DNA of 32,000 nt. Origin: Chlamydiales bacterium (GTDB taxonomy: Bacteria > Chlamydiota > Chlamydiia > Chlamydiales > JAAKFR01). Under the pieces are notes generated by a model. It had not been told where the DNA came from. It made no database searches and saw nothing but the letters and a program-made list of their open reading frames with translations. Positions 2,859 through 11,309 of this stretch are shown here, piece by piece; position 1 is the first letter of the stretch; each line of letters opens with the position of its first letter. Location of the stretch: positions 1,200,001-1,232,000 of the forward strand of contig JAWLBH010000001.1 of assembly GCA_041395025.1 (NCBI GenBank). Direction: 5' to 3'. The translations under genes were made by a program, and so were the position numbers.

Positions 2859-5800
2859 ATGTTTGAAGAGTCTCAAAAAAATCGTTTTGATAAGTTAAAA
2901 ATCGGAATCGCATCGGATGCTGTTATTCGAGATAAGTGGTCCCTTGGAGAGATAAAAAAACCTGAAACTATTAACTACCGTACATTTAAGCCTGAAAAGG
3001 GAGGACTTTTTTGTGAAAAGATTTTTGGTCCCACAAAAGATTGGGAGTGTGCTTGTGGTAAGTATAAAAAAATCAAACACAAAGGAATTGTCTGTGATCG
3101 ATGTGGTGTAGAGGTGACTCTTTCAAAAGTTCGTCGAGAGAGGATGGCACATATTGAGCTTTCTGTTCCTGTTGTCCACATCTGGTTTTTTAAGTCAATG
3201 CCTTCGCGTATTGGTAATGTTTTAGGCATGTCTTCGAGTGATCTTGAACGGATTATTTATTACGAAGAGTATGTGGTTATTGAGTCTGGTCAAACTGATC
3301 TTGAACGTAAACAACTACTAAATGATGCAGAGTATCGAGATGCAATTGAGAAGTGGGGCCATGGAGCTTTTGACGCAAAAATGGGTGGAGAAGCGGTTGC
3401 TGATTTATTACGTAATGAAGATCTCGATGGGTTATTAATAGATCTCAAAGAAAAACTCAGAAGAACAAAATCTCAACAAGCTCGCATGAAATTGGCTAAG
3501 CGCCTTAAGATTGTAGAAGGATTTGTCACCTCTTCTAATAAGCCTGAATGGATGGTGATGCGATCCATTCCTGTCATTCCACCTGATTTAAGGCCACTAG
3601 TTCCTCTTGACGGGGGACGTTTTGCTACTTCAGATCTAAATGATCTTTATCGTCGAGTGATTAATCGCAATAATCGCTTAAAAGCTATTTTACGTCTTAA
3701 AACACCTGACGTAATTGTCCGAAATGAAAAAAGGATGCTACAAGAGGCAGTAGATGCTCTTTTTGATAATGGTCGTCATGGTCATCCAGTCATGGGAGCA
3801 GGAAATCGTCCATTAAAATCCCTCTCTGAAATGCTTAAAGGAAAGGGAGGACGCTTTCGTCAAAACCTTCTTGGTAAAAGAGTAGATTATTCAGGTCGCT
3901 CTGTGATTATTGTAGGACCTGAGTTGAAGTTTAATCAGTGTGGAATTCCTAAAGACATGGCTCTTGAGCTTTTTGAACCTTTTATTGTGAAACGATTAAA
4001 AGAATTAGGATATGTCTATACGATTCGTTCAGCTAAAAAAATGATCCAACGGGGAGCACCTGAAGTATGGGATGTCCTTGAAGAGATTATAAAAGGCCAT
4101 CCAGTCATGCTGAACCGAGCTCCTACTCTTCATAGACTTGGGATTCAAGCTTTTGAACCTGTGCTTATTGAAGGAAAGGCCATTCGGATACACCCTCTCG
4201 TTTGTTCCGCCTTTAATGCGGACTTTGATGGTGATCAAATGGCTGTTCACGTTCCCTTATCGATTGAAGCTCAGCTAGAAACAAAAATTTTAATGATGGC
4301 TCCTGATAATATTTTCCTGCCTTCTTCTGGTAAGCCTGTTGCGATTCCTTCTAAAGATATGACTTTAGGACTCTATTATTTAATGGCAGATCCTATTTAT
4401 TTTCCTAAAAAGACCAAAGTGTTTTCGGATCAAAATGAAGTGCTATTAGCTCTATCAGCTGCTGATAGTATGACTTTATTTAATGAAAGAGGTAAAAAAA
4501 GCAACAGATATGACACCACAGGTCGGGGTTTACATATTCATGAAAAAATTCAAGTAAGGATTGAAGGATCCATTATTGTTACGACACCAGGTCGAGTACT
4601 TTTTAATAAAATTGTACCAAAAGAACTTGGATTTCAGAATTACAACATGCCAAGCAAACGCATGAGTCAGTTGATTCTTGATTGTTATAGAAAGGTTGGA
4701 TTAGAAGCAACAGTTAAATTTTTAGATGATCTTAAAGATCTAGGTTTCTCTCAGGCTACAAAAGCAGCGATTTCCATGGGGATTACTGACGTACGTATTC
4801 CTAAAATTAAGCATAAAGTCATTAAGGATGCGTATCAGAAAGTAGAAGTTGTGCGTAAACAATATGAAGATGGAATTATCACTGATGGTGAGCGAGAGTC
4901 AAAAACAATTAGCATTTGGACTGAAGTCTCAGATTATCTTTCTGAAACTCTGTTTGAAGAAGTAAGTAAAGTCGAAGATTCTCGCCATAATCCTCTCTTT
5001 TTAATGATTGATTCTGGAGCAAGGGGAAATAAGTCTCAGTTGAAACAACTTGGTGGTTTACGTGGTCTGATGGCTAAGCCAACAGGAGAGATTATTGAAT
5101 CTCCAATTACCTCTAATTTTAGAGAAGGTTTAACAGTGATTGAATATTCAATTTCCTCTCATGGCGCGCGTAAAGGTCTTGCGGATACTGCTTTGAAAAC
5201 AGCAGATTCAGGTTATTTGACTCGTCGACTCGTTGATGTGGCTCAAGATGTCATTGTGACTGAGTTTGATTGTGGCACGTTGAATGCAATTGAAGTTTCA
5301 GGAATTAAACAGGGACAAGAAGAATTATTACCACTTAAAGATCGTATTTACGGTCGAACAATTGCTGATAATATTTATCAACCTGGTGATAAGAGTAAAC
5401 TGCTTGCAAAAGCTGGCGATATTCTAACAGCTCAACAAGCTGAATTGATTGATGATGCAGGAATTGAGAGTGTAAGAATTCGTTCTCCATTAACATGTGA
5501 AAGTCGACGAGGAGTTTGTGCAAATTGTTATGGAATGAATTTAGCTAATGGACGTCAGATTGGATTAGGAGAAGCTGTTGGAATTATTGCCGCGCAGTCC
5601 ATTGGAGAACCGGGGACTCAGTTGACAATGAGAACATTTCATTTAGGAGGGATTGCTGCAGCTACTTTTAGTCCTGAGATTGTTGTGGAAAATGAGGGAA
5701 TTGCTGTCTATATGGATTTAAGAACAGTTGAGGATTCGCATGGAAATTCTTTGGTTTTAAATAAAAATGGAGCATTACATGTTGTGCGTGATGAGGGACG

Positions 5801-7001
5801 TAAACTCCAAGACTATAAGAAACTTCTTAGCACAAAATCTATAGAATCTCTTCAAATAATTCCGCTTGAGCTTGGAGCTAAAATTCTTGTTAAAGATGGA
5901 GCATCTGTCCATCCTGGACAAAAAATTGTAGAAATTGAGCTTCATAACATTCCTATTATTTGCGATCGTTCCGGATATATTAAATACGAAGATCTTGTGG
6001 AAGGTATTTCAACTGAAAAAGAAATTAATAAACAAACTGGACTTATAGAATTAATCGTAAAACAACATCGAGGTGAGCTACATCCTCAAATTGCAATTTA
6101 TAATGATCCTGATTTTAAAGATTTAGTGGGTACTTATGCTATTCCAGCTGGAGCTGTTTTATCTGTAGATGAAAAGCAACACATTAAACCTGGTATGCTT
6201 CTTGCACGTCTTCCACGTGGTGCGATTAAGACGAAAGATATTACGGGTGGGTTACCACGAGTTGCAGAATTAGTTGAAGCACGTAAACCTAAGGAAGCAG
6301 CTGAGATTGCAAAAATTGATGGTTTAGTTGACTTTCGTGGTGTTCAGAAAAATAGACGCATTGTGATTGTACGTGATGAGACAACAGGAATGGAAGAAGA
6401 GCATCTTATTCCACTCACTAAGCATTTAATTGTACAGAGAGGAGATAATGTATTAAAAGGACAACAATTGACGGACGGACTTGTTGTTCCACACGAAATT
6501 CTTGAAATTTGTGGTGTACGTGAACTACAAAAATATCTTGTTAACGAAGTACAAGAAGTTTATCAACTTCAAGGTGTAGATATTAATGATAAACATATTG
6601 AGATCATTGTACGACAAATGTTACAAAAAGTTAGGGTCATTGATCCAGGTGATACCACTCTTCTTTTTGGAGAAGAGGTACATAAGAAGCAGTTTTACGA
6701 AGAAAATCGACGTACGATTGAAGAAGGTGGAAAGCCAGCTCAAGCTGCTCCTCTATTGCTTGGAATTACAAAAGCTTCACTTGGAACTCAGTCCTTCATT
6801 TCCGCAGCTTCATTTCAAGACACAACACGTGTTCTAACAGGCGCGGCTTGTGCAGGAAATACGGATTATCTTATGGGATTTAAGGAAAATGTGATTATGG
6901 GCCATATGATTCCTGGTGGAACAGGCTTTGACAATCATTATCGAGTGAAACAATATCTTGACTCTGAAGAACAAGAAGAACTTGCTTTTGATTTTGGTTA
7001 A
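2859..7001 (+). CDS. rpoC: DNA-directed RNA polymerase beta' subunit (1380 aa)
   Basis: ATG at 2859 is preceded by GGAG (2847-2850) with an 8-nt spacer. It has the Zn-finger [23 protein letters not shown], the catalytic [25 protein letters not shown] and [16 protein letters not shown]. It lies 46 nt downstream of rpoB. Confidence 0.98.
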
Positions 7002-7036: not shown

Positions 7037-8008
7037 TTATACAGCCGAAGCCATGTGTTTGAGAATGTGTTTTTCAAGCTTAAGAGTGTCTTTAACAAAA
7101 TTCCGAATTCCTTCAGAGAGTTTTTCAGTTGCCATTGCGTTGTTATTTAATTCGAAGCGAAAGACAGACTCGTCAATTTTTAATTCTTGGATAGACATTT
7201 TCTTAGATATCTCTTGAGAAAGTTTAGGTTTAATCATTCCTTGACTATTCTTTAAAATGTCCAATAGCTTTGGTGAAATGGTCAATAAGTCACAACCAGC
7301 TAGTTCCAAAATCTCATCGACATTGCGAAATGAAGCTCCCATAATTTGGGTTTTATACCCAAATTTTTTATAATAATTATAAATTTCTGTGACTGAGAGG
7401 ACACCTGGATCTTTTTCTGGTAAATAATTTATGACATCTTGATGTGCTTGATACCAATCGAGAATACGTCCGACAAAAGGAGAAATGAGTGTTGCACCAA
7501 CTTCTGCTGCTGCAACTGCTTGCACTAGGCTAAACATGAGAGTCATATTACAATGAATCCCCTCTTTTTCAAGAATTTGTGCAGCTTGAAAGCCTTCCCA
7601 AGTTGAAGCAAGTTTGATTAAAATACGTGCACGATCAATACCTTCTGCTTCATATAACTCGATTAAATGGATTGCCTTTTTTATACTTTTTTGTGCATCA
7701 AAAGAAAGACGAGCATCGACTTCTGTGGATACCCGTCCTGGGATAATTTTTAAAATTTCAAGACCAAAGTTAACAAAGAGCTTATCCATAATAAGATGGA
7801 GTCTTTCATTTTGATTGCATTTTTTACTCATTCCCCAATGGATGGCATCATGAATCAAGTATTGATAAGCTTCCTCAGAAGCAGCTTGAAAGATTAATGA
7901 AGGATTAGTCGTTGCATCAGTTGGTGCATATTTTTTAATGCTTTTGATATCACCTGTGTCACAAACGACTGTCGTTATCTGCTTTAATTGATCTAGTTTA
8001 GACAGCAT
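7037..8008 (-). CDS. tal: Transaldolase (TalB-type, 323 aa)
   Basis: Motifs DATTNPSLI, GRVSTEVDARLSFD, ILIKLASTWEG (Schiff-base Lys region) and ISPFVGRILDWY closely resemble E. coli TalB. The gene is convergent with rpoC across a 35-nt gap. Confidence 0.95.
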   Translation of the reverse strand: MLSKLDQLKQITTVVCDTGDIKSIKKYAPTDATTNPSLIFQAASEEAYQYLIHDAIHWGMSKKCNQNERLHLIMDKLFVNFGLEILKIIPGRVSTEVDARLSFDAQKSIKKAIHLIELYEAEGIDRARILIKLASTWEGFQAAQILEKEGIHCNMTLMFSLVQAVAAAEVGATLISPFVGRILDWYQAHQDVINYLPEKDPGVLSVTEIYNYYKKFGYKTQIMGASFRNVDEILELAGCDLLTISPKLLDILKNSQGMIKPKLSQEISKKMSIQELKIDESVFRFELNNNAMATEKLSEGIRNFVKDTLKLEKHILKHMASAV

Positions 8009-8245
8009 AGCACACCCTATTTATTGGCTTATTATGGCAATAAAAATACATATATTCTTACATTGTATAATAAAATCATTAAAAAATATCATTATTTAAA
8101 ATTTCTTAAATAGAAAAATAAAATCTTTTTAAAGATTTGAATATAAATTAGATGAAATTTTCAATTTTTCTATTCATGATGAGCAATAAAAAATTTTATC
8201 TAATTTTACCTTGTATTTGTTAAACAATCTCTGTTTATATCAATT

Positions 8246-8731
8246 CTAATGATGAATAGTTCCTTTGATCAAGCAATGAATATGAGCTGTTTTTTCATTT
8301 TCATTAAAAGCTTTTTGCTTTAAATAGGCAGCTCGATGTAGACCTTTTTTAGTCATGATCATCCGTACTAATTCATGTTCTCCCTTTGGAAAAAAACGTT
8401 CATAGATAACGTCATTTGGGTCATTTCTAATGATTTGCCACTTGACAAGAGGACTTTTCTTCTGTTCACTAATCATTGCTTCTTCAGCTGTTGACCCCTC
8501 AATGAGATGAGAATCTTTAAATTGAATTGTTAAAAGTTCTGGCCAATTTGCACCATTCTCTTCTTCTCCAATAAAATGAGAAATAGAGGATCCATTGTCA
8601 TCTGCAGATTCTTTCACTTTTTTCCAAATATTTTTTTCTTCAAATGGGATTAAAAACGTTTCATCGAAAGTATAGCTTGCTTCAAGATGAGAGATGAAAA
8701 CAAACAGAATGAATAAAATAAATCTTCTCAT
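8246..8731 (-). CDS. Hypothetical secreted protein (about 161 aa from internal ATG)
   Basis: This is a long ORF in stop-rich AT-rich DNA. The internal Met at 8731 begins MRRFILFILFVFISHLEAS, a classic signal peptide. The upstream extension to 8818 is Lys/Phe/Ile low-complexity sequence. The C-terminus is His-rich (HIHCLIKGTIHH). I recognise no family. Confidence 0.7.
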   Translation of the reverse strand: MRRFILFILFVFISHLEASYTFDETFLIPFEEKNIWKKVKESADDNGSSISHFIGEEENGANWPELLTIQFKDSHLIEGSTAEEAMISEQKKSPLVKWQIIRNDPNDVIYERFFPKGEHELVRMIMTKKGLHRAAYLKQKAFNENEKTAHIHCLIKGTIHH

Positions 8732-8808
8732 GGTATGAAAATATGATAAAACACCAAGTATATATTTTTTTATTCTTTTAATAAAGAAAATAAAAAATTT
8801 AACTTTGA

Positions 8809-8833
8809 AATTTATCAAAGAGTTTGATAAATT
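8809..8833. promoter_or_regulatory. Perfect 11-bp inverted repeat AATTTATCAAA-gag-TTTGATAAATT in a divergent intergenic region (candidate operator)
   Basis: Read directly: 8809-8819 is the reverse complement of 8823-8833. It lies 32 nt upstream of the ATG at 8865. The 9-mer GAGTTTGAT recurs at 8820-8828 and 8851-8859. The AT-rich context raises the chance expectation for such a match. Confidence 0.3.
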
Positions 8834-8864
8834 GAATGTGATTTTTAATTGAGTTTGATTGACG

Positions 8865-9239
8865 ATGCAAGTAGGACATAAACTTCAGATTCATTGCCAA
8901 GAATGTGAGGCTCCTATTTTTTTTTCTGTCCTTGATCAAGACCATTTTACTAAAATCCTCCTCTGTAATCAATGTGGTCAAAAATACGCATTTGAGGATA
9001 CCACTCTACTTAAACACCTCCACCAATTTGAATCTCTTTGTCATCAAATTCATGCATCGCAAGACATTTTAGGAGAAGCATCGATTGCAATAGATGTAGG
9101 TTCCCATCATGTGAAAGTCCCTTTTAACATTCTTTTAACTAGGCTCAGCTCTGTAATTGATTTAGAAGTGAAAGGAAAAAAAATCTCTGTTGCTTTTCGT
9201 ATTGAGCCTCTTAAAGATGTACCTGATGCATTCAATTAA
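8865..9239 (+). CDS. Hypothetical small zinc-ribbon protein (about 124 aa)
   Basis: ATG at 8865 (the ORF-track start at 8859 is TTG). Four Cys are arranged CQEC-x20-CNQC near the N-terminus, as in a Zn ribbon. There is no signal peptide. It is divergent from the 8246-8731 gene and is followed by a strong hairpin. Confidence 0.75.
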   Translation: MQVGHKLQIHCQECEAPIFFSVLDQDHFTKILLCNQCGQKYAFEDTTLLKHLHQFESLCHQIHASQDILGEASIAIDVGSHHVKVPFNILLTRLSSVIDLEVKGKKISVAFRIEPLKDVPDAFN

Positions 9240-9274: not shown

Positions 9275-9313
9275 AGAAAGATCTATTGTTCATTATGAAC
9301 AATAGATCTTTCT
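9275..9313. terminator. Bidirectional intrinsic-terminator-like hairpin between convergent genes
   Basis: AGAAAGATCTATTGTTCAT (9275-9293) and ATGAACAATAGATCTTTCT (9295-9313) are exact reverse complements, giving a 19-nt palindrome arm. On the minus strand it is followed by TTCTTTTTT. On the plus strand the T-tract is weak (GGTTTGC). Confidence 0.55.
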
Positions 9314-9393: not shown

Positions 9394-9864
9394 TCATTTT
9401 TTGTAGAGTTTAAAAAAATTTGAAGATAGAAGATCGGTCTGGTATCTATCTAGATAAATATGGATATTTTGATGGTTTTCTAACGAAGAGATGAGTTTTT
9501 CAGTGGCTTCTTCAGATAACAGAAATTTTTGTCCTCCTCTCATACGTGTGGCTTTGTAAGAAAATATCTTTTGTTCAATCAAAAATACAACAGGAACTTG
9601 GTTAGATCCATCTAGAGAGAGGGGAATTGGGTGAGCAGAAATAGTAAGATATACTACTGTTCCAAATGCTCCTTTTAATAATTCTACATTGATGCCATTG
9701 ATTGGATCTTTGGTTCGATGGAGGATACGATGTGAGTTCCATTGTCGATGTGTTGAAGAAGTCTGACTATATGACCATTCTTTATGTGCAATACAGGCTG
9801 GAAGGAGTAAAAGTAACCATATATAATTCGACTTATGGTGCAGTGTGGCTATGAACGACTCCAT
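9394..9864 (-). CDS. Hypothetical exported protein, possible lipoprotein (about 156 aa)
   Basis: ATG at 9864 gives MESFIATLHHKSNYIWLLLLLPAC, a hydrophobic core followed by a lipobox-like LPAC (Pro at -2 is atypical). The N-terminal mature region is His-rich (HKEW..THRQWNSHRILHR). It overlaps the upstream gene by 32 nt. I recognise no family. Confidence 0.65.
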   Translation of the reverse strand: MESFIATLHHKSNYIWLLLLLPACIAHKEWSYSQTSSTHRQWNSHRILHRTKDPINGINVELLKGAFGTVVYLTISAHPIPLSLDGSNQVPVVFLIEQKIFSYKATRMRGGQKFLLSEEATEKLISSLENHQNIHIYLDRYQTDLLSSNFFKLYKK

Positions 9865-10288
9865 TGTTTGATCCGATGATGAGGGTTGCTGCAGTAACGA
9901 TGACTGCAATGCCTAATCCCACATAGACAATATTTAAACCACACTGGGTAGAGGTAGAAGTAGCTGGTGGGGTGCAAGGATTTGGTTGAGGGTGTTCATC
10001 ACAACTACAAGGATAGCAGTTGCAACTAGGGCAATATCCGTGATTATAGTTTTGGTAGTCTAAAAAGGTATTACTACTTTCAGTACATGCGGGATTAGAT
10101 TTTGGTTGAGGGTCCTCATCAACACAACTCTCATCAACACAACTACAAGGATGGCAGTTGCAACTAGGACAGTATCCGTGATTATAGTTTTGGTAGTCTA
10201 AAAAGGTATTACTATCGGCATGAAGCAGTGAATGAGAACACATTAAGAAGATAATTAGTTTTGAAAAAAAAATACGCATGAATTTCAT
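9833..10288 (-). CDS. Small Cys-rich repeat protein with signal peptide and C-terminal TM anchor (151 aa)
   Basis: Signal peptide MKFMRIFFSKLIIFLMCSHSLLHA. Two copies of SNTFLDYQNYNHGYCPSCNC[H/Y]PCSC are each followed by an acidic/PQP..NP..C linker. I count 14 Cys in the mature part. The C-terminal hydrophobic helix is LNIVYVGLGIAVIVTAATLIIG, followed by the tail SNNGVVHSHTAP. It is a paralog of the next gene. Confidence 0.8.
   Translation of the reverse strand: MKFMRIFFSKLIIFLMCSHSLLHADSNTFLDYQNYNHGYCPSCNCHPCSCVDESCVDEDPQPKSNPACTESSNTFLDYQNYNHGYCPSCNCYPCSCDEHPQPNPCTPPATSTSTQCGLNIVYVGLGIAVIVTAATLIIGSNNGVVHSHTAP
9965..10213 (-). repeat. Intragenic tandem duplication (period 138 bp = 46 codons), with a nested 15-bp microduplication
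   Basis: Core copies 10001-10076 and 10139-10214 differ at 3 of 76 nt by manual alignment; two differences are synonymous and one is His/Tyr. The flanking TTTGGTTGAGGGT is also repeated (9981 and 10101). CTCATCAACACAACT occurs twice in tandem at about 10116-10145 and encodes SCVDESCVDE. Confidence 0.85.
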
Positions 10289-10308
10289 CTAACCATAATT
10301 AGGCTTAT

Positions 10309-10623
10309 TTAGATATGTTGATGTGTGGTACTAGATCCATTTCCAGAGACTAAAATAATAGCTGCTGCTCCAGCAATCGCTACTATGGCTACACCGATCG
10401 CACAAATAGAGATACCACATTTAGTTCCACAAATTGGAGCACACGGATCACATGAAATTTTCCGAGATGGATGGGAGCAATTGGATGAACAAGAAGAGCT
10501 ATTACATTCAGAAGAATGTTCATGAGGATAATGTTGGTCATGAGAATGAGGAGCATCAGCTCCTTTTACGGGCATTACAGATCCGATAATAAACACAGAC
10601 AAGAGCAAGACCATGGTTTTCAT
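10309..10623 (-). CDS. Small His/Cys-rich protein with signal peptide and C-terminal TM anchor (104 aa)
   Basis: GGAGA lies 7 nt upstream of the ATG at 10623. Signal peptide MKTMVLLLSVFIIGSVMPVKGA. A His cluster HSHDQHYPHEH is followed by 8 Cys, including SCDPCAPICGTKCG. The TM helix is ISICAIGVAIVAIAGAAAIILV, followed by the tail SGNGSSTTHQHI. The C-terminal 36 aa align with the 151-aa neighbour. Confidence 0.8.
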   Translation of the reverse strand: MKTMVLLLSVFIIGSVMPVKGADAPHSHDQHYPHEHSSECNSSSCSSNCSHPSRKISCDPCAPICGTKCGISICAIGVAIVAIAGAAAIILVSGNGSSTTHQHI

Positions 10624-10746: not shown

Positions 10747-11223
10747 TTATTTAGTGATAGAAAAAGATTGAATCGATTTAAAGATACAAGGTGAAAGGGA
10801 AGCAAATTCTTCTTGTAGTGATGTTGCAGTAACAACATAAGCTTTACTATCCTTCAATATGACTGCTTGAATAAAACGGATATGACCCCATTGAGTCGTT
10901 TTGTCGATCTGGAGTAATTGAGCATTTCCTGCTTTCGTCTCAATCGTTCCTAATTGTTTGCATTGGCTATCTCCTTGTGCCTCATGATAGGATTTTGCGA
11001 GTGCTAAATATTTCTCAAGCTCAAGAGAAGTTTCTTCAGAAGCAATGTTCAGAGAGGGAGTAAATGGGGTTTTTCCTTTTCCAATATAGATTAAGGAGAC
11101 TTTTTGAGGAAGTTGTTCAGGATCACTCACACAATCCCAACCTTTTGGTGGAATGATAGAAAGATGTTCTGCTAAAAGCAGGCATTTTAAACAAAACAAA
11201 ATTAAAAAGAAAAAAAATCGCAT
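10747..11223 (-). CDS. Hypothetical secreted protein, possibly DcrB/PsbP-like (DUF1795-like) fold (about 158 aa)
   Basis: GGAGGA lies 7 nt upstream of the second ATG (11223), which gives MRFFFFLILFCLKCLLLAEH, a signal peptide. The mature region begins IPPKGWDCVSDPEQLP, and its alternating strand pattern resembles DcrB/PsbP-like periplasmic proteins. The family call is tentative. Confidence 0.7.
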   Translation of the reverse strand: MRFFFFLILFCLKCLLLAEHLSIIPPKGWDCVSDPEQLPQKVSLIYIGKGKTPFTPSLNIASEETSLELEKYLALAKSYHEAQGDSQCKQLGTIETKAGNAQLLQIDKTTQWGHIRFIQAVILKDSKAYVVTATSLQEEFASLSPCIFKSIQSFSITK

Positions 11224-11309
11224 CTTTATATCCTCCATTGTATTTCGAAATCATAAATATTTCATATCTAATTGAGCGACCTCATCATTTTTTTTGTGAG
11301 CATAAGTAT

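Follow-up and report, generated by a model that had tools for sequence, protein, structure and literature searches.

Genes A and B are two adjacent minus-strand genes in a 32,000-nucleotide stretch of a Chlamydiales bacterium genome (hereafter the window; contig JAWLBH010000001.1, positions 1,200,001 to 1,232,000). Judged from sequence, they are members of a real and conserved protein family that had not been described before and is restricted to uncultured Chlamydiae. The alignments point to three family hallmarks: a near-invariant, 20-residue DYQNYNHGYCPxCxCxPCxC tip, PxAPVCGTxCG directly before a C-terminal helix, and His in the tail that follows it. This architecture appears to be new among the small Cys-rich envelope proteins of Chlamydiae, and profile comparisons place it outside the OmcA family and the known sorting-tag classes. 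As to function, A and B may be membrane-tethered metal binders with thiolate and imidazole ligands, a reading to which we give a probability of about 0.35. Metal binding and disulfide cross-linking of the envelope are the leading readings, and they are not mutually exclusive.

Genes A and B and their family

The two open reading frames (ORFs) lie where the sequence-only reading had placed them, at 9833-10288 and 10309-10623. Their NCBI entries are R3E91_05590 (A) and R3E91_05595 (B), both hypothetical proteins encoded on a 1.32-Mb contig of a Chlamydiales bacterium metagenome-assembled genome (MAG). NCBI starts gene A at Met4, giving 148 amino acids (aa) versus 151 aa from the first ATG. The motifs that had been quoted for the two proteins are present, except that the second copy in gene A reads CPSCNCYPCSC and not CPSCNCHPCSC. 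The parts of the two genes are as follows (HMM, hidden Markov model; pLDDT, predicted local distance difference test; hydropathy scores are Kyte-Doolittle values over a 19-residue window).

9833..10288, minus strand: gene A, last-in-array subtype PPATxxxTQCGLNIxYVG ... GSNNGxxHxxAP; family HMM 1.4e-50; orthologue in locus L010, E 2e-35
10217..10288, minus strand: gene A signal-peptide-like segment, aa 1-24; hydropathy and AlphaFold2 helix 2-18; cleavage LLHA|D, rule-based only
10139..10213, minus strand: gene A N-module copy 1, SNTFLDYQNYNHGYCPSCNCHPCSC, aa 26-50; from family alignments
10001..10075, minus strand: gene A N-module copy 2, SNTFLDYQNYNHGYCPSCNCYPCSC, aa 72-96; a recent intragenic duplication
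9938..9976, minus strand: gene A juxtamembrane segment, CTPPATSTSTQCG, aa 105-117; degenerate counterpart of CDPCAPVCGTxCG
9875..9937, minus strand: gene A C-terminal hydrophobic helix, LNIVYVGLGIAVIVTAATLII, aa 118-138; hydropathy 2.57; AlphaFold2 pLDDT ~90
9836..9874, minus strand: gene A tail with HxH, GSNNGVVHSHTAP, aa 139-151; from sequence
10309..10623, minus strand: gene B (104 aa), subtype CDPCAPxCGTxCGISICAIG ... SGNGSSxxHxH; family HMM 3.5e-31; orthologue is the second array gene of locus L008, E 2e-12
10558..10623, minus strand: gene B signal-peptide-like segment, aa 1-22; hydropathy peak; cleavage VKG|A, rule-based only
10474..10557, minus strand: gene B degenerate N-module, ADAPHSHDQHYPHEHSSECNSSSCSSNC, aa 23-50; in register with the orthologue's DYQNYNHGYCPxCxCxPC (co-linear BLASTP)
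10414..10455, minus strand: gene B juxtamembrane motif, SCDPCAPICGTKCG, aa 57-70; from sequence and family alignment
10348..10413, minus strand: gene B C-terminal hydrophobic helix, ISICAIGVAIVAIAGAAAIILV, aa 71-92; hydropathy 2.82
10312..10347, minus strand: gene B tail with HxH, SGNGSSTTHQHI, aa 93-104; from sequence

A direct BLASTP comparison of A with B was not significant (E 0.13). The family HMM scored both proteins (1.4e-50 for A and 3.5e-31 for B), and the member P0002 matched both, combining the tip motif of A with the DPCAPVCGTQCGISICAIG module of B in one protein. The paralogy claimed in the sequence-only reading is thus upheld, and A and B are diverged paralogues of one small family. 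Word-indexed searches returned 72 relatives for A and 4 for B, and only 75 members were retrieved at E<=1e-3 when 1.84 billion representative proteins were scanned in full with HMMER; apart from one spurious long protein (P0117), all had 79-199 aa. No Pfam or NCBIfam family was found for A, B or the 60 members scanned, for which only sub-threshold compositional matches were seen (Mating_C, YxzE, BimA_second, fdx_plant, LpqS), and we found no description of the family in the literature; the earlier impression that no described family fits was therefore borne out.

The predicted architecture, comprising a signal peptide, a Cys-rich ectodomain, Cys-Gly before a single helix and a polar His tail, is kept across about 130 members, as had been proposed for A and B. 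The consensus begins with the signal peptide and a (S/D)NTF(I/L)DYQNYNHGYCPxCxCxPCxC tip, followed by a variable linker that is Pro-rich, acidic or Cys-rich. Next comes (C)DPCAPVCGTxCG(I/V)S, directly before a helix of about 21 residues (Ala 31%, Ile 21%, Val 16%, Gly 9%, Phe 0.4%), and the protein ends in a tail of median length 10 (Ser 29%, Gly 15%, His 15%, Asn 12%). Tip residues Q30, H34 and C40 were invariant in both family alignments, while C45 was invariant in alignment A1 and nearly so in A2. CG preceded the helix in 112/131 members and DPCAP occurred in 38/131. His, the third commonest tail residue, was found in 112/130 tails, 55 of which carried HxH; Lys or Arg occurred in 24/130, mostly as one residue. 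The tip motif was missing from a subset of 80-110 aa members. A few members, P0120 and P0129 among them, had no Cys in the mature protein and kept PxAPVxGT, the helix and the HxH tail. Two registers (CGT and CGIS) blurred a C-terminal sequence logo, which was left aside.

Hydropathy analysis revealed two hydrophobic segments in each protein, at residues 6-24 and 120-138 of A (C-terminal score 2.57) and at residues 4-22 and 73-91 of B (C-terminal score 2.82). An AlphaFold2 model of gene A, built from the 60-sequence family alignment, contained three helices only: 2-18, a weak helix at 24-33, and 117-137 (pLDDT ~90). The ectodomain of A is predicted to be disordered, at least without ligand or disulfides, because residues 49-89 had pLDDT <50 in this model. 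A rule-based signal-peptide pattern was fitted by 110/131 members. Hydropathy and the AlphaFold2 helices agree; signal-peptide cleavage and the topology of A and B are predictions. The only match in a profile search of the PDB, the designed protein 8pjs SAKeCEref, fell on the Ala-rich helix and was set aside as low complexity.

Within gene A, an 81-nt direct repeat (9996-10076 and 10134-10214; 95% identical, spacing 138 nt) is a recent in-frame duplication of the tip module. The N-terminus of gene B was co-linear with the tip motif of its orthologue in BLASTP (FLDYQNYNHGYCPDCDCAPC versus HSHDQHYPHEHSSECNSSSC); relative to that orthologue, 3/5 Cys have become Ser and 5 His have been gained within 12 residues.

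Across the four paralogue types compared between two related MAGs, the ratio of nonsynonymous to synonymous substitution rates (dN/dS) was 0.03-0.14 at dS 1.0-1.7, and the Cys-free type gave 0.036. The family genes, including the Cys-free type, are thus under selection. A scan of one genome per species yielded 21 loci, all in uncultured Chlamydiae MAGs and none in a cultured species. Two of the MAGs that carry the family, K940_chlam_9 and KR126_chlam_2, come from the sister clade of Chlamydiaceae, Chlamydiae Clade IV (PMC11249467).

Several members and matches stood apart. At L015 5281-5979, a 232-aa member has a linker built from Tyr/Pro/Asn/Gly repeats (YPPxxQAYPNG-like) and not the Pro/Cys linker. 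P0117 is an 839-aa protein from a 12-kb JGI metagenome contig, without a signal peptide, that carries three GHC(P/S)xCDCSPC(E/R)C copies; these units share the H-x-C-P-x-C-x-C-x-P-C-x-C spacing with the family tip, and P0117 is otherwise unrelated. The tip motif may therefore be a free-standing Cys knuckle that is used elsewhere. Two loci bear unexpected organism names, L022 (titled MAG: Chlamydia trachomatis) and L018 (titled Verrucomicrobia bacterium). Since the family sits there in the same chlamydial synteny, these look like mislabelled environmental Chlamydiae.

Proposed metal binding and the competing functions

Under the metal-binding reading, A and B would be small type I (N-out, C-in) inner-membrane proteins of a Chlamydiae-specific family. 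Once the Sec signal peptide had been removed, an acidic, disordered, Pro/Cys-rich ectodomain would lie in the periplasm, one small-residue-rich helix would anchor the protein and probably pack with co-encoded paralogues, and a 10-residue Ser/Gly/Asn/His tail would point toward the cytoplasm. The candidate ligands are the H-x2-C-x2-C-x4-C-x-C tip, a C-x2-C-x3-C-x3-C ladder at the membrane surface and the HxH tail. Together these could chelate metal ions of the soft or borderline kind (Cu or Zn, for example), and the proteins might buffer metal, or hand it on, in the envelope of a bacterium that lives inside protists. What the analysis shows is that the genes are real, belong to the family and sit at a fixed locus, with hydrophobic segments, predicted disorder and conserved motifs and ligands; signal-peptide cleavage, topology, oligomerisation, metal binding and the identity of the metal are all steps that we infer.

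The arrangement of Cys is consistent with this reading. CxxC was enriched (381 observed versus 232 +/- 12 in shuffles), as was CxxxC (313 versus 228 +/- 13), CC was avoided (44 versus 240), and CxC was not enriched over shuffles. Ectodomains contained 15.8% Cys, 18% Pro and 10% Asp plus Glu versus 2.3% Lys plus Arg. Both the Cys spacing and the acidic ectodomain would fit cation binding. Cys counts were even in 73 members and odd in 57; because parity is thus unconstrained, a fixed set of intramolecular disulfides is not expected. A ligand role for His is suggested by the tail His, by the expansion of some tails to poly-His (SSHGSHHGHHK, SHNRGHHGH), by the His gained in gene B and by the invariant H34. 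The replacement of Cys by Ser in gene B together with the gain of His would fit a change of ligand type, not the loss of disulfide sites. We also count in favour of metal binding the Cys-free paralogues, which keep the helix and HxH tail under strong purifying selection. The GHCPxCDCSPCEC units of P0117 suggest a self-contained Cys knuckle. The tandem arrays and the duplicated tip module are reminiscent of metallothioneins and their dosage-type evolution.

Several observations weigh against metal binding. The conserved neighbourhood contains no metal pump, regulator or chaperone gene. Every member comes from an uncultured organism. Cys metal sites are uncommon in an oxidising periplasm. A match of gene B to the copper-linked LpqS in NCBIfam was sub-threshold (E 0.018, 15 bits versus a cut-off of 35) and probably compositional. 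Non-ligand residues of the tip (DYQNYN, GY) are conserved better than some Cys, and in this respect the tip resembles a binding site for a partner more than it does a metal sponge. Moreover, the Pro-rich or acidic spacers run from 10 to >100 residues, which hints at a stalk or a reaching function, for which metal binding would have no need. An active DsbA/DsbB pair is present in Chlamydia (PMC6752827).

The same Cys-rich ectodomains could instead be stalks, anchored in the inner membrane, that form disulfide cross-links in the infectious stage, either among themselves or with proteins of the outer membrane complex. Such cross-linking would make the envelope stiffer or hold the two membranes together, and the family would be a functional counterpart of OmcA whose anchor lies at the other end of the protein and in the other membrane. 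The prior for a function of this kind is the stronger one in Chlamydiae, where OmcA, OmcB and MOMP form a disulfide-linked outer membrane complex in Chlamydiaceae (PMC3561449). Disordered ectodomains with ~16% Cys and 18% Pro are compatible with it, the common odd Cys counts would permit intermolecular bonds, and a highly conserved tip at the far end of Pro-rich or acidic spacers would suit a stalk extending to a binding partner; the periplasmic protein and the lipoprotein encoded in the same operon point the same way. In addition, DPCAP near the anchor is common to OmcA, and PF03503 was found only in Chlamydiaceae, so that other lineages may use other small Cys proteins. However, cross-linking leaves unexplained the conserved His-rich cytoplasmic tail, the strongly selected Cys-free paralogues, and the exchange of Cys for Ser with gain of His in gene B. 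Linker length also varies more than tenfold, against a fixed-distance tether, and OmcA homology was not detectable. We regard cross-linking as somewhat unlikely, its place among the two leading readings notwithstanding.

The features common to all members, Cys-free ones included, are only the pre-helix motif, the helix and the tail, and this favours a function centred on the helix. PxAPVxGT, an Ala/Ile/Val/Gly helix and the tail would then form a homo- or hetero-oligomer, serving as a small pore or as an accessory subunit, for example of the adjacent V-type ATPase, with the Cys ectodomains secondary. The helix composition given above, rich in Ala and Gly with almost no Phe, resembles that of tightly packed helices, the 1-4 paralogue types keep a fixed order across genomes, and the array adjoins the V-ATPase operon wherever the contig reaches (atpE in 17/21 loci). 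In eukaryotes, the c-ring of the V-ATPase encloses type I accessory proteins with a single helix (Voa1, Ac45). Against this, the V-ATPase/tal/rpoBC order is a general chlamydial backbone, the family genes are divergent from the ATPase operon with one gene in between, and the near-invariant N-terminal tip is left without explanation; to our knowledge, Chlamydiaceae keep the V-ATPase without this family. We consider a helix-centred oligomer improbable. More improbable still is a hetero-oligomer of the paralogues, assembled through their small-residue helices, that passes metal ions across the inner membrane or senses them on both of its sides. In such a Ctr1-like conduit, rings of Cys on the periplasmic membrane surface would deliver metal to HxH in the cytoplasm; we know of no single-helix conduit of this kind in bacteria. 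In a separate reading, likewise very improbable, the helices would serve the rotor ring of the neighbouring V-type ATPase as plugs or accessory subunits, as Voa1/Ac45 do in eukaryotes. The sequence-only reading had also proposed a C-terminal sorting or processing signal analogous to the MYXO-CTERM or GlyGly-CTERM classes. Cys-Gly, helix and tail would then be recognised and removed by a dedicated enzyme, the ectodomain being re-anchored or released, as also with PEP-CTERM and LPXTG. The extreme C-terminus does have the tripartite look of a motif (CG in 112/131), a hydrophobic helix and a short tail. Nevertheless, the NCBIfam sorting-domain models matched neither A nor B (E<=0.1) nor the 60 members (E<=1), and the basic cluster expected after the helix is missing, the few Lys or Arg residues being mostly single. 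The C-terminal module was confined to these 78-232 aa proteins, with no varied cargo among the 1.84 billion proteins (P0117 matches the tip and not the tag). The called genes listed for three genomes included nothing protease- or sortase-like within ~8 kb, and the pre-helix Cys is dispensable in some members. We give this proposal very little credence. On balance, metal binding with thiolate and imidazole ligands is the reading that we favour.

The conserved locus

The family occupies the same place in every locus, in tandem arrays of 1-4 genes with the paralogue types in fixed order. Where the contig reaches, the order is atpE (divergent), a ~160-aa signal-peptide protein, the 1-4 family genes, a ~150-aa lipoprotein, a Zn-ribbon gene on the other strand, and tal. 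The lipobox Cys of the lipoprotein is invariant, and its gene begins before the last family gene has ended. The array of the window is reduced to two genes. Gene A is the orthologue of the last array gene (BLASTP with the C-terminal module, 71-87 bits to L004, L006, L007, L008 and L010), and gene B is the orthologue of the tip-bearing DPCAP type that precedes it (81-88 bits to the closest counterparts in L001, L007 and L008). The features that flank A and B are as follows.

10747..11238, minus strand: upstream signal-peptide protein, 163 aa; directly upstream of the array in 18/21 loci
9394..9864, minus strand: downstream lipoprotein R3E91_05585, 156 aa; lipobox Cys24 invariant; start overlaps the 3' end of gene A by 32 nt (9833-9864)
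9275..9313, minus strand: terminator-like hairpin, 18-bp perfect stem plus T run, after the lipoprotein gene

For the 163-aa protein, profile searches gave only weak PsbP_2 or LpqN-like hints (E ~0.04-0.06, in 1-2 members), and no PDB match was obtained. Judging by gene order, it may correspond to C. trachomatis CT311. No family was found for the R3E91_05585 lipoprotein in profile searches, and Foldseek gave no match to the PDB at E<=0.001 with a single-sequence AlphaFold2 model that was poor (pLDDT 55). The hairpin at 9275-9313 is the probable end of a four-gene unit, and it is probably a bidirectional terminator between the convergent lipoprotein (minus) and Zn-ribbon (plus) genes.

Two further small genes keep their synteny with the array: one at 8859-9239 (plus) encodes a 126-aa protein with two CxxC pairs that is Zn-ribbon-like by weak Pfam hints, and the other at 8246-8818 (minus) encodes a 190-aa signal-peptide protein. 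G+C content drops to 27.8% at 8001-9000, in the small-gene region between tal and the array, versus 35-40% elsewhere. The window is otherwise chlamydial backbone, with rpoC at 2859-7001, tal (transaldolase) at 7037-8008 and the V-type ATPase operon from 11455; a 932-aa ORF at 14-2812 is taken to be rpoB by synteny with related loci. The other large genes encode DAHP synthase, a symporter, a class I tRNA ligase (valS-like), a protein kinase and a UvrA-like ABC ATPase. A scan of the window for sigma-28 late promoters gave one match, at position 688, far from A and B; sigma-70 consensus matches were not enriched over shuffles, and Rfam and tRNA scans of the window were empty.

Comparison with OmcA and other known systems

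Cys-rich proteins serve Chlamydiae in building and remodelling the envelope, and the known set (OmcA, OmcB, MOMP) was defined in pathogens. The present family is strongly conserved and tandemly expanded in uncultured lineages that include the sister clade of Chlamydiaceae. If it proves to be an envelope cross-linker, it would be an alternative solution to the role of OmcA and would bear on the evolution of the outer membrane complex. If it binds metal, it would be a membrane-tethered, periplasmic, metallothionein-like protein relevant to surviving metal stress inside protists. Under either reading, the clean family definition and the fixed locus are open to Pfam and NCBIfam modelling.

A likeness to OmcA had been suggested from a shared motif. 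The OmcA motif had been given correctly: among 12 OmcA sequences, FEDPC was invariant and P33 nearly so, and the CT444 sequence was 100% identical to a database protein that carries PF03503 (Chlam_OMP3). Gene B carries SCDPCAPIC. Beyond this, PF03503 matched neither A nor B (E<=1) nor any of the 60 members (E<=0.1). An hhalign comparison of the family with OmcA gave a probability of 3.6% and aligned the signal peptides only; restricted to the mature regions in local mode, it gave 2.2% and 0.4% and did not choose the DPCAP register. The OmcA alignment showed an invariant LSSC lipobox (L16, S17, S18, C19). As noted beforehand, A and B are without an N-terminal lipobox, their signal peptides ending in AxA-type sites with no conserved Cys there. 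Among the listed ORFs of the window (>=100 aa), none of unknown function was OmcB-sized. Kinship with OmcA thus found no support in PF03503, hhalign, the lipobox or gene context; the DPCAP pentapeptide alone is in common, and at the sequence level a shared pentapeptide is by itself no proof of homology.

The resemblance to OmcA is nonetheless one of kind. Both are small, Sec-exported, Cys-rich, low-complexity periplasmic proteins of Chlamydiae, both place an (E)DPCAP motif within about 10 residues of the membrane anchor, and both may work alike as thiol-rich envelope proteins. They differ in the anchor, which is an N-terminal lipidated Cys in OmcA and a C-terminal helix in the family, and in gene neighbours, which are omcB for OmcA and a signal-peptide protein plus a lipoprotein for A and B. 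Their distributions also differ, OmcA (PF03503) being found only in Chlamydiaceae and the A/B family only outside them.

With the sorting tags MYXO-CTERM, GlyGly-CTERM, PEP-CTERM and LPXTG, the family shares a short motif, sometimes of Cys or Gly, followed by a terminal hydrophobic helix; the absence of a model match, a basic tail, diverse cargo and a nearby enzyme (three genomes, ~8 kb) speaks against a sorting or processing signal. Metallothioneins and metal sponges (SmtA, MymT, Csp1, PcoE/SilE) resemble the family in high Cys content, His clusters, modular and tandem duplication, enriched CxxC and CxxxC, and in having no stable fold predicted without ligand. Unlike them, the family is membrane-anchored, with a predicted cytoplasmic His tail, a Tyr/Pro-rich composition and conserved non-ligand residues in its tip, and Pfam and NCBIfam scans gave no sequence match to any metallothionein or sponge family. 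Ctr1 likewise combines a ligand-rich ectodomain, a small-residue helix and a short cytosolic H-x-H tail (HCH in Ctr1). It differs in having three helices per subunit, Met ligands and a eukaryotic distribution, and it has no sequence relationship to the family, so that the resemblance to Ctr1 is one of layout.

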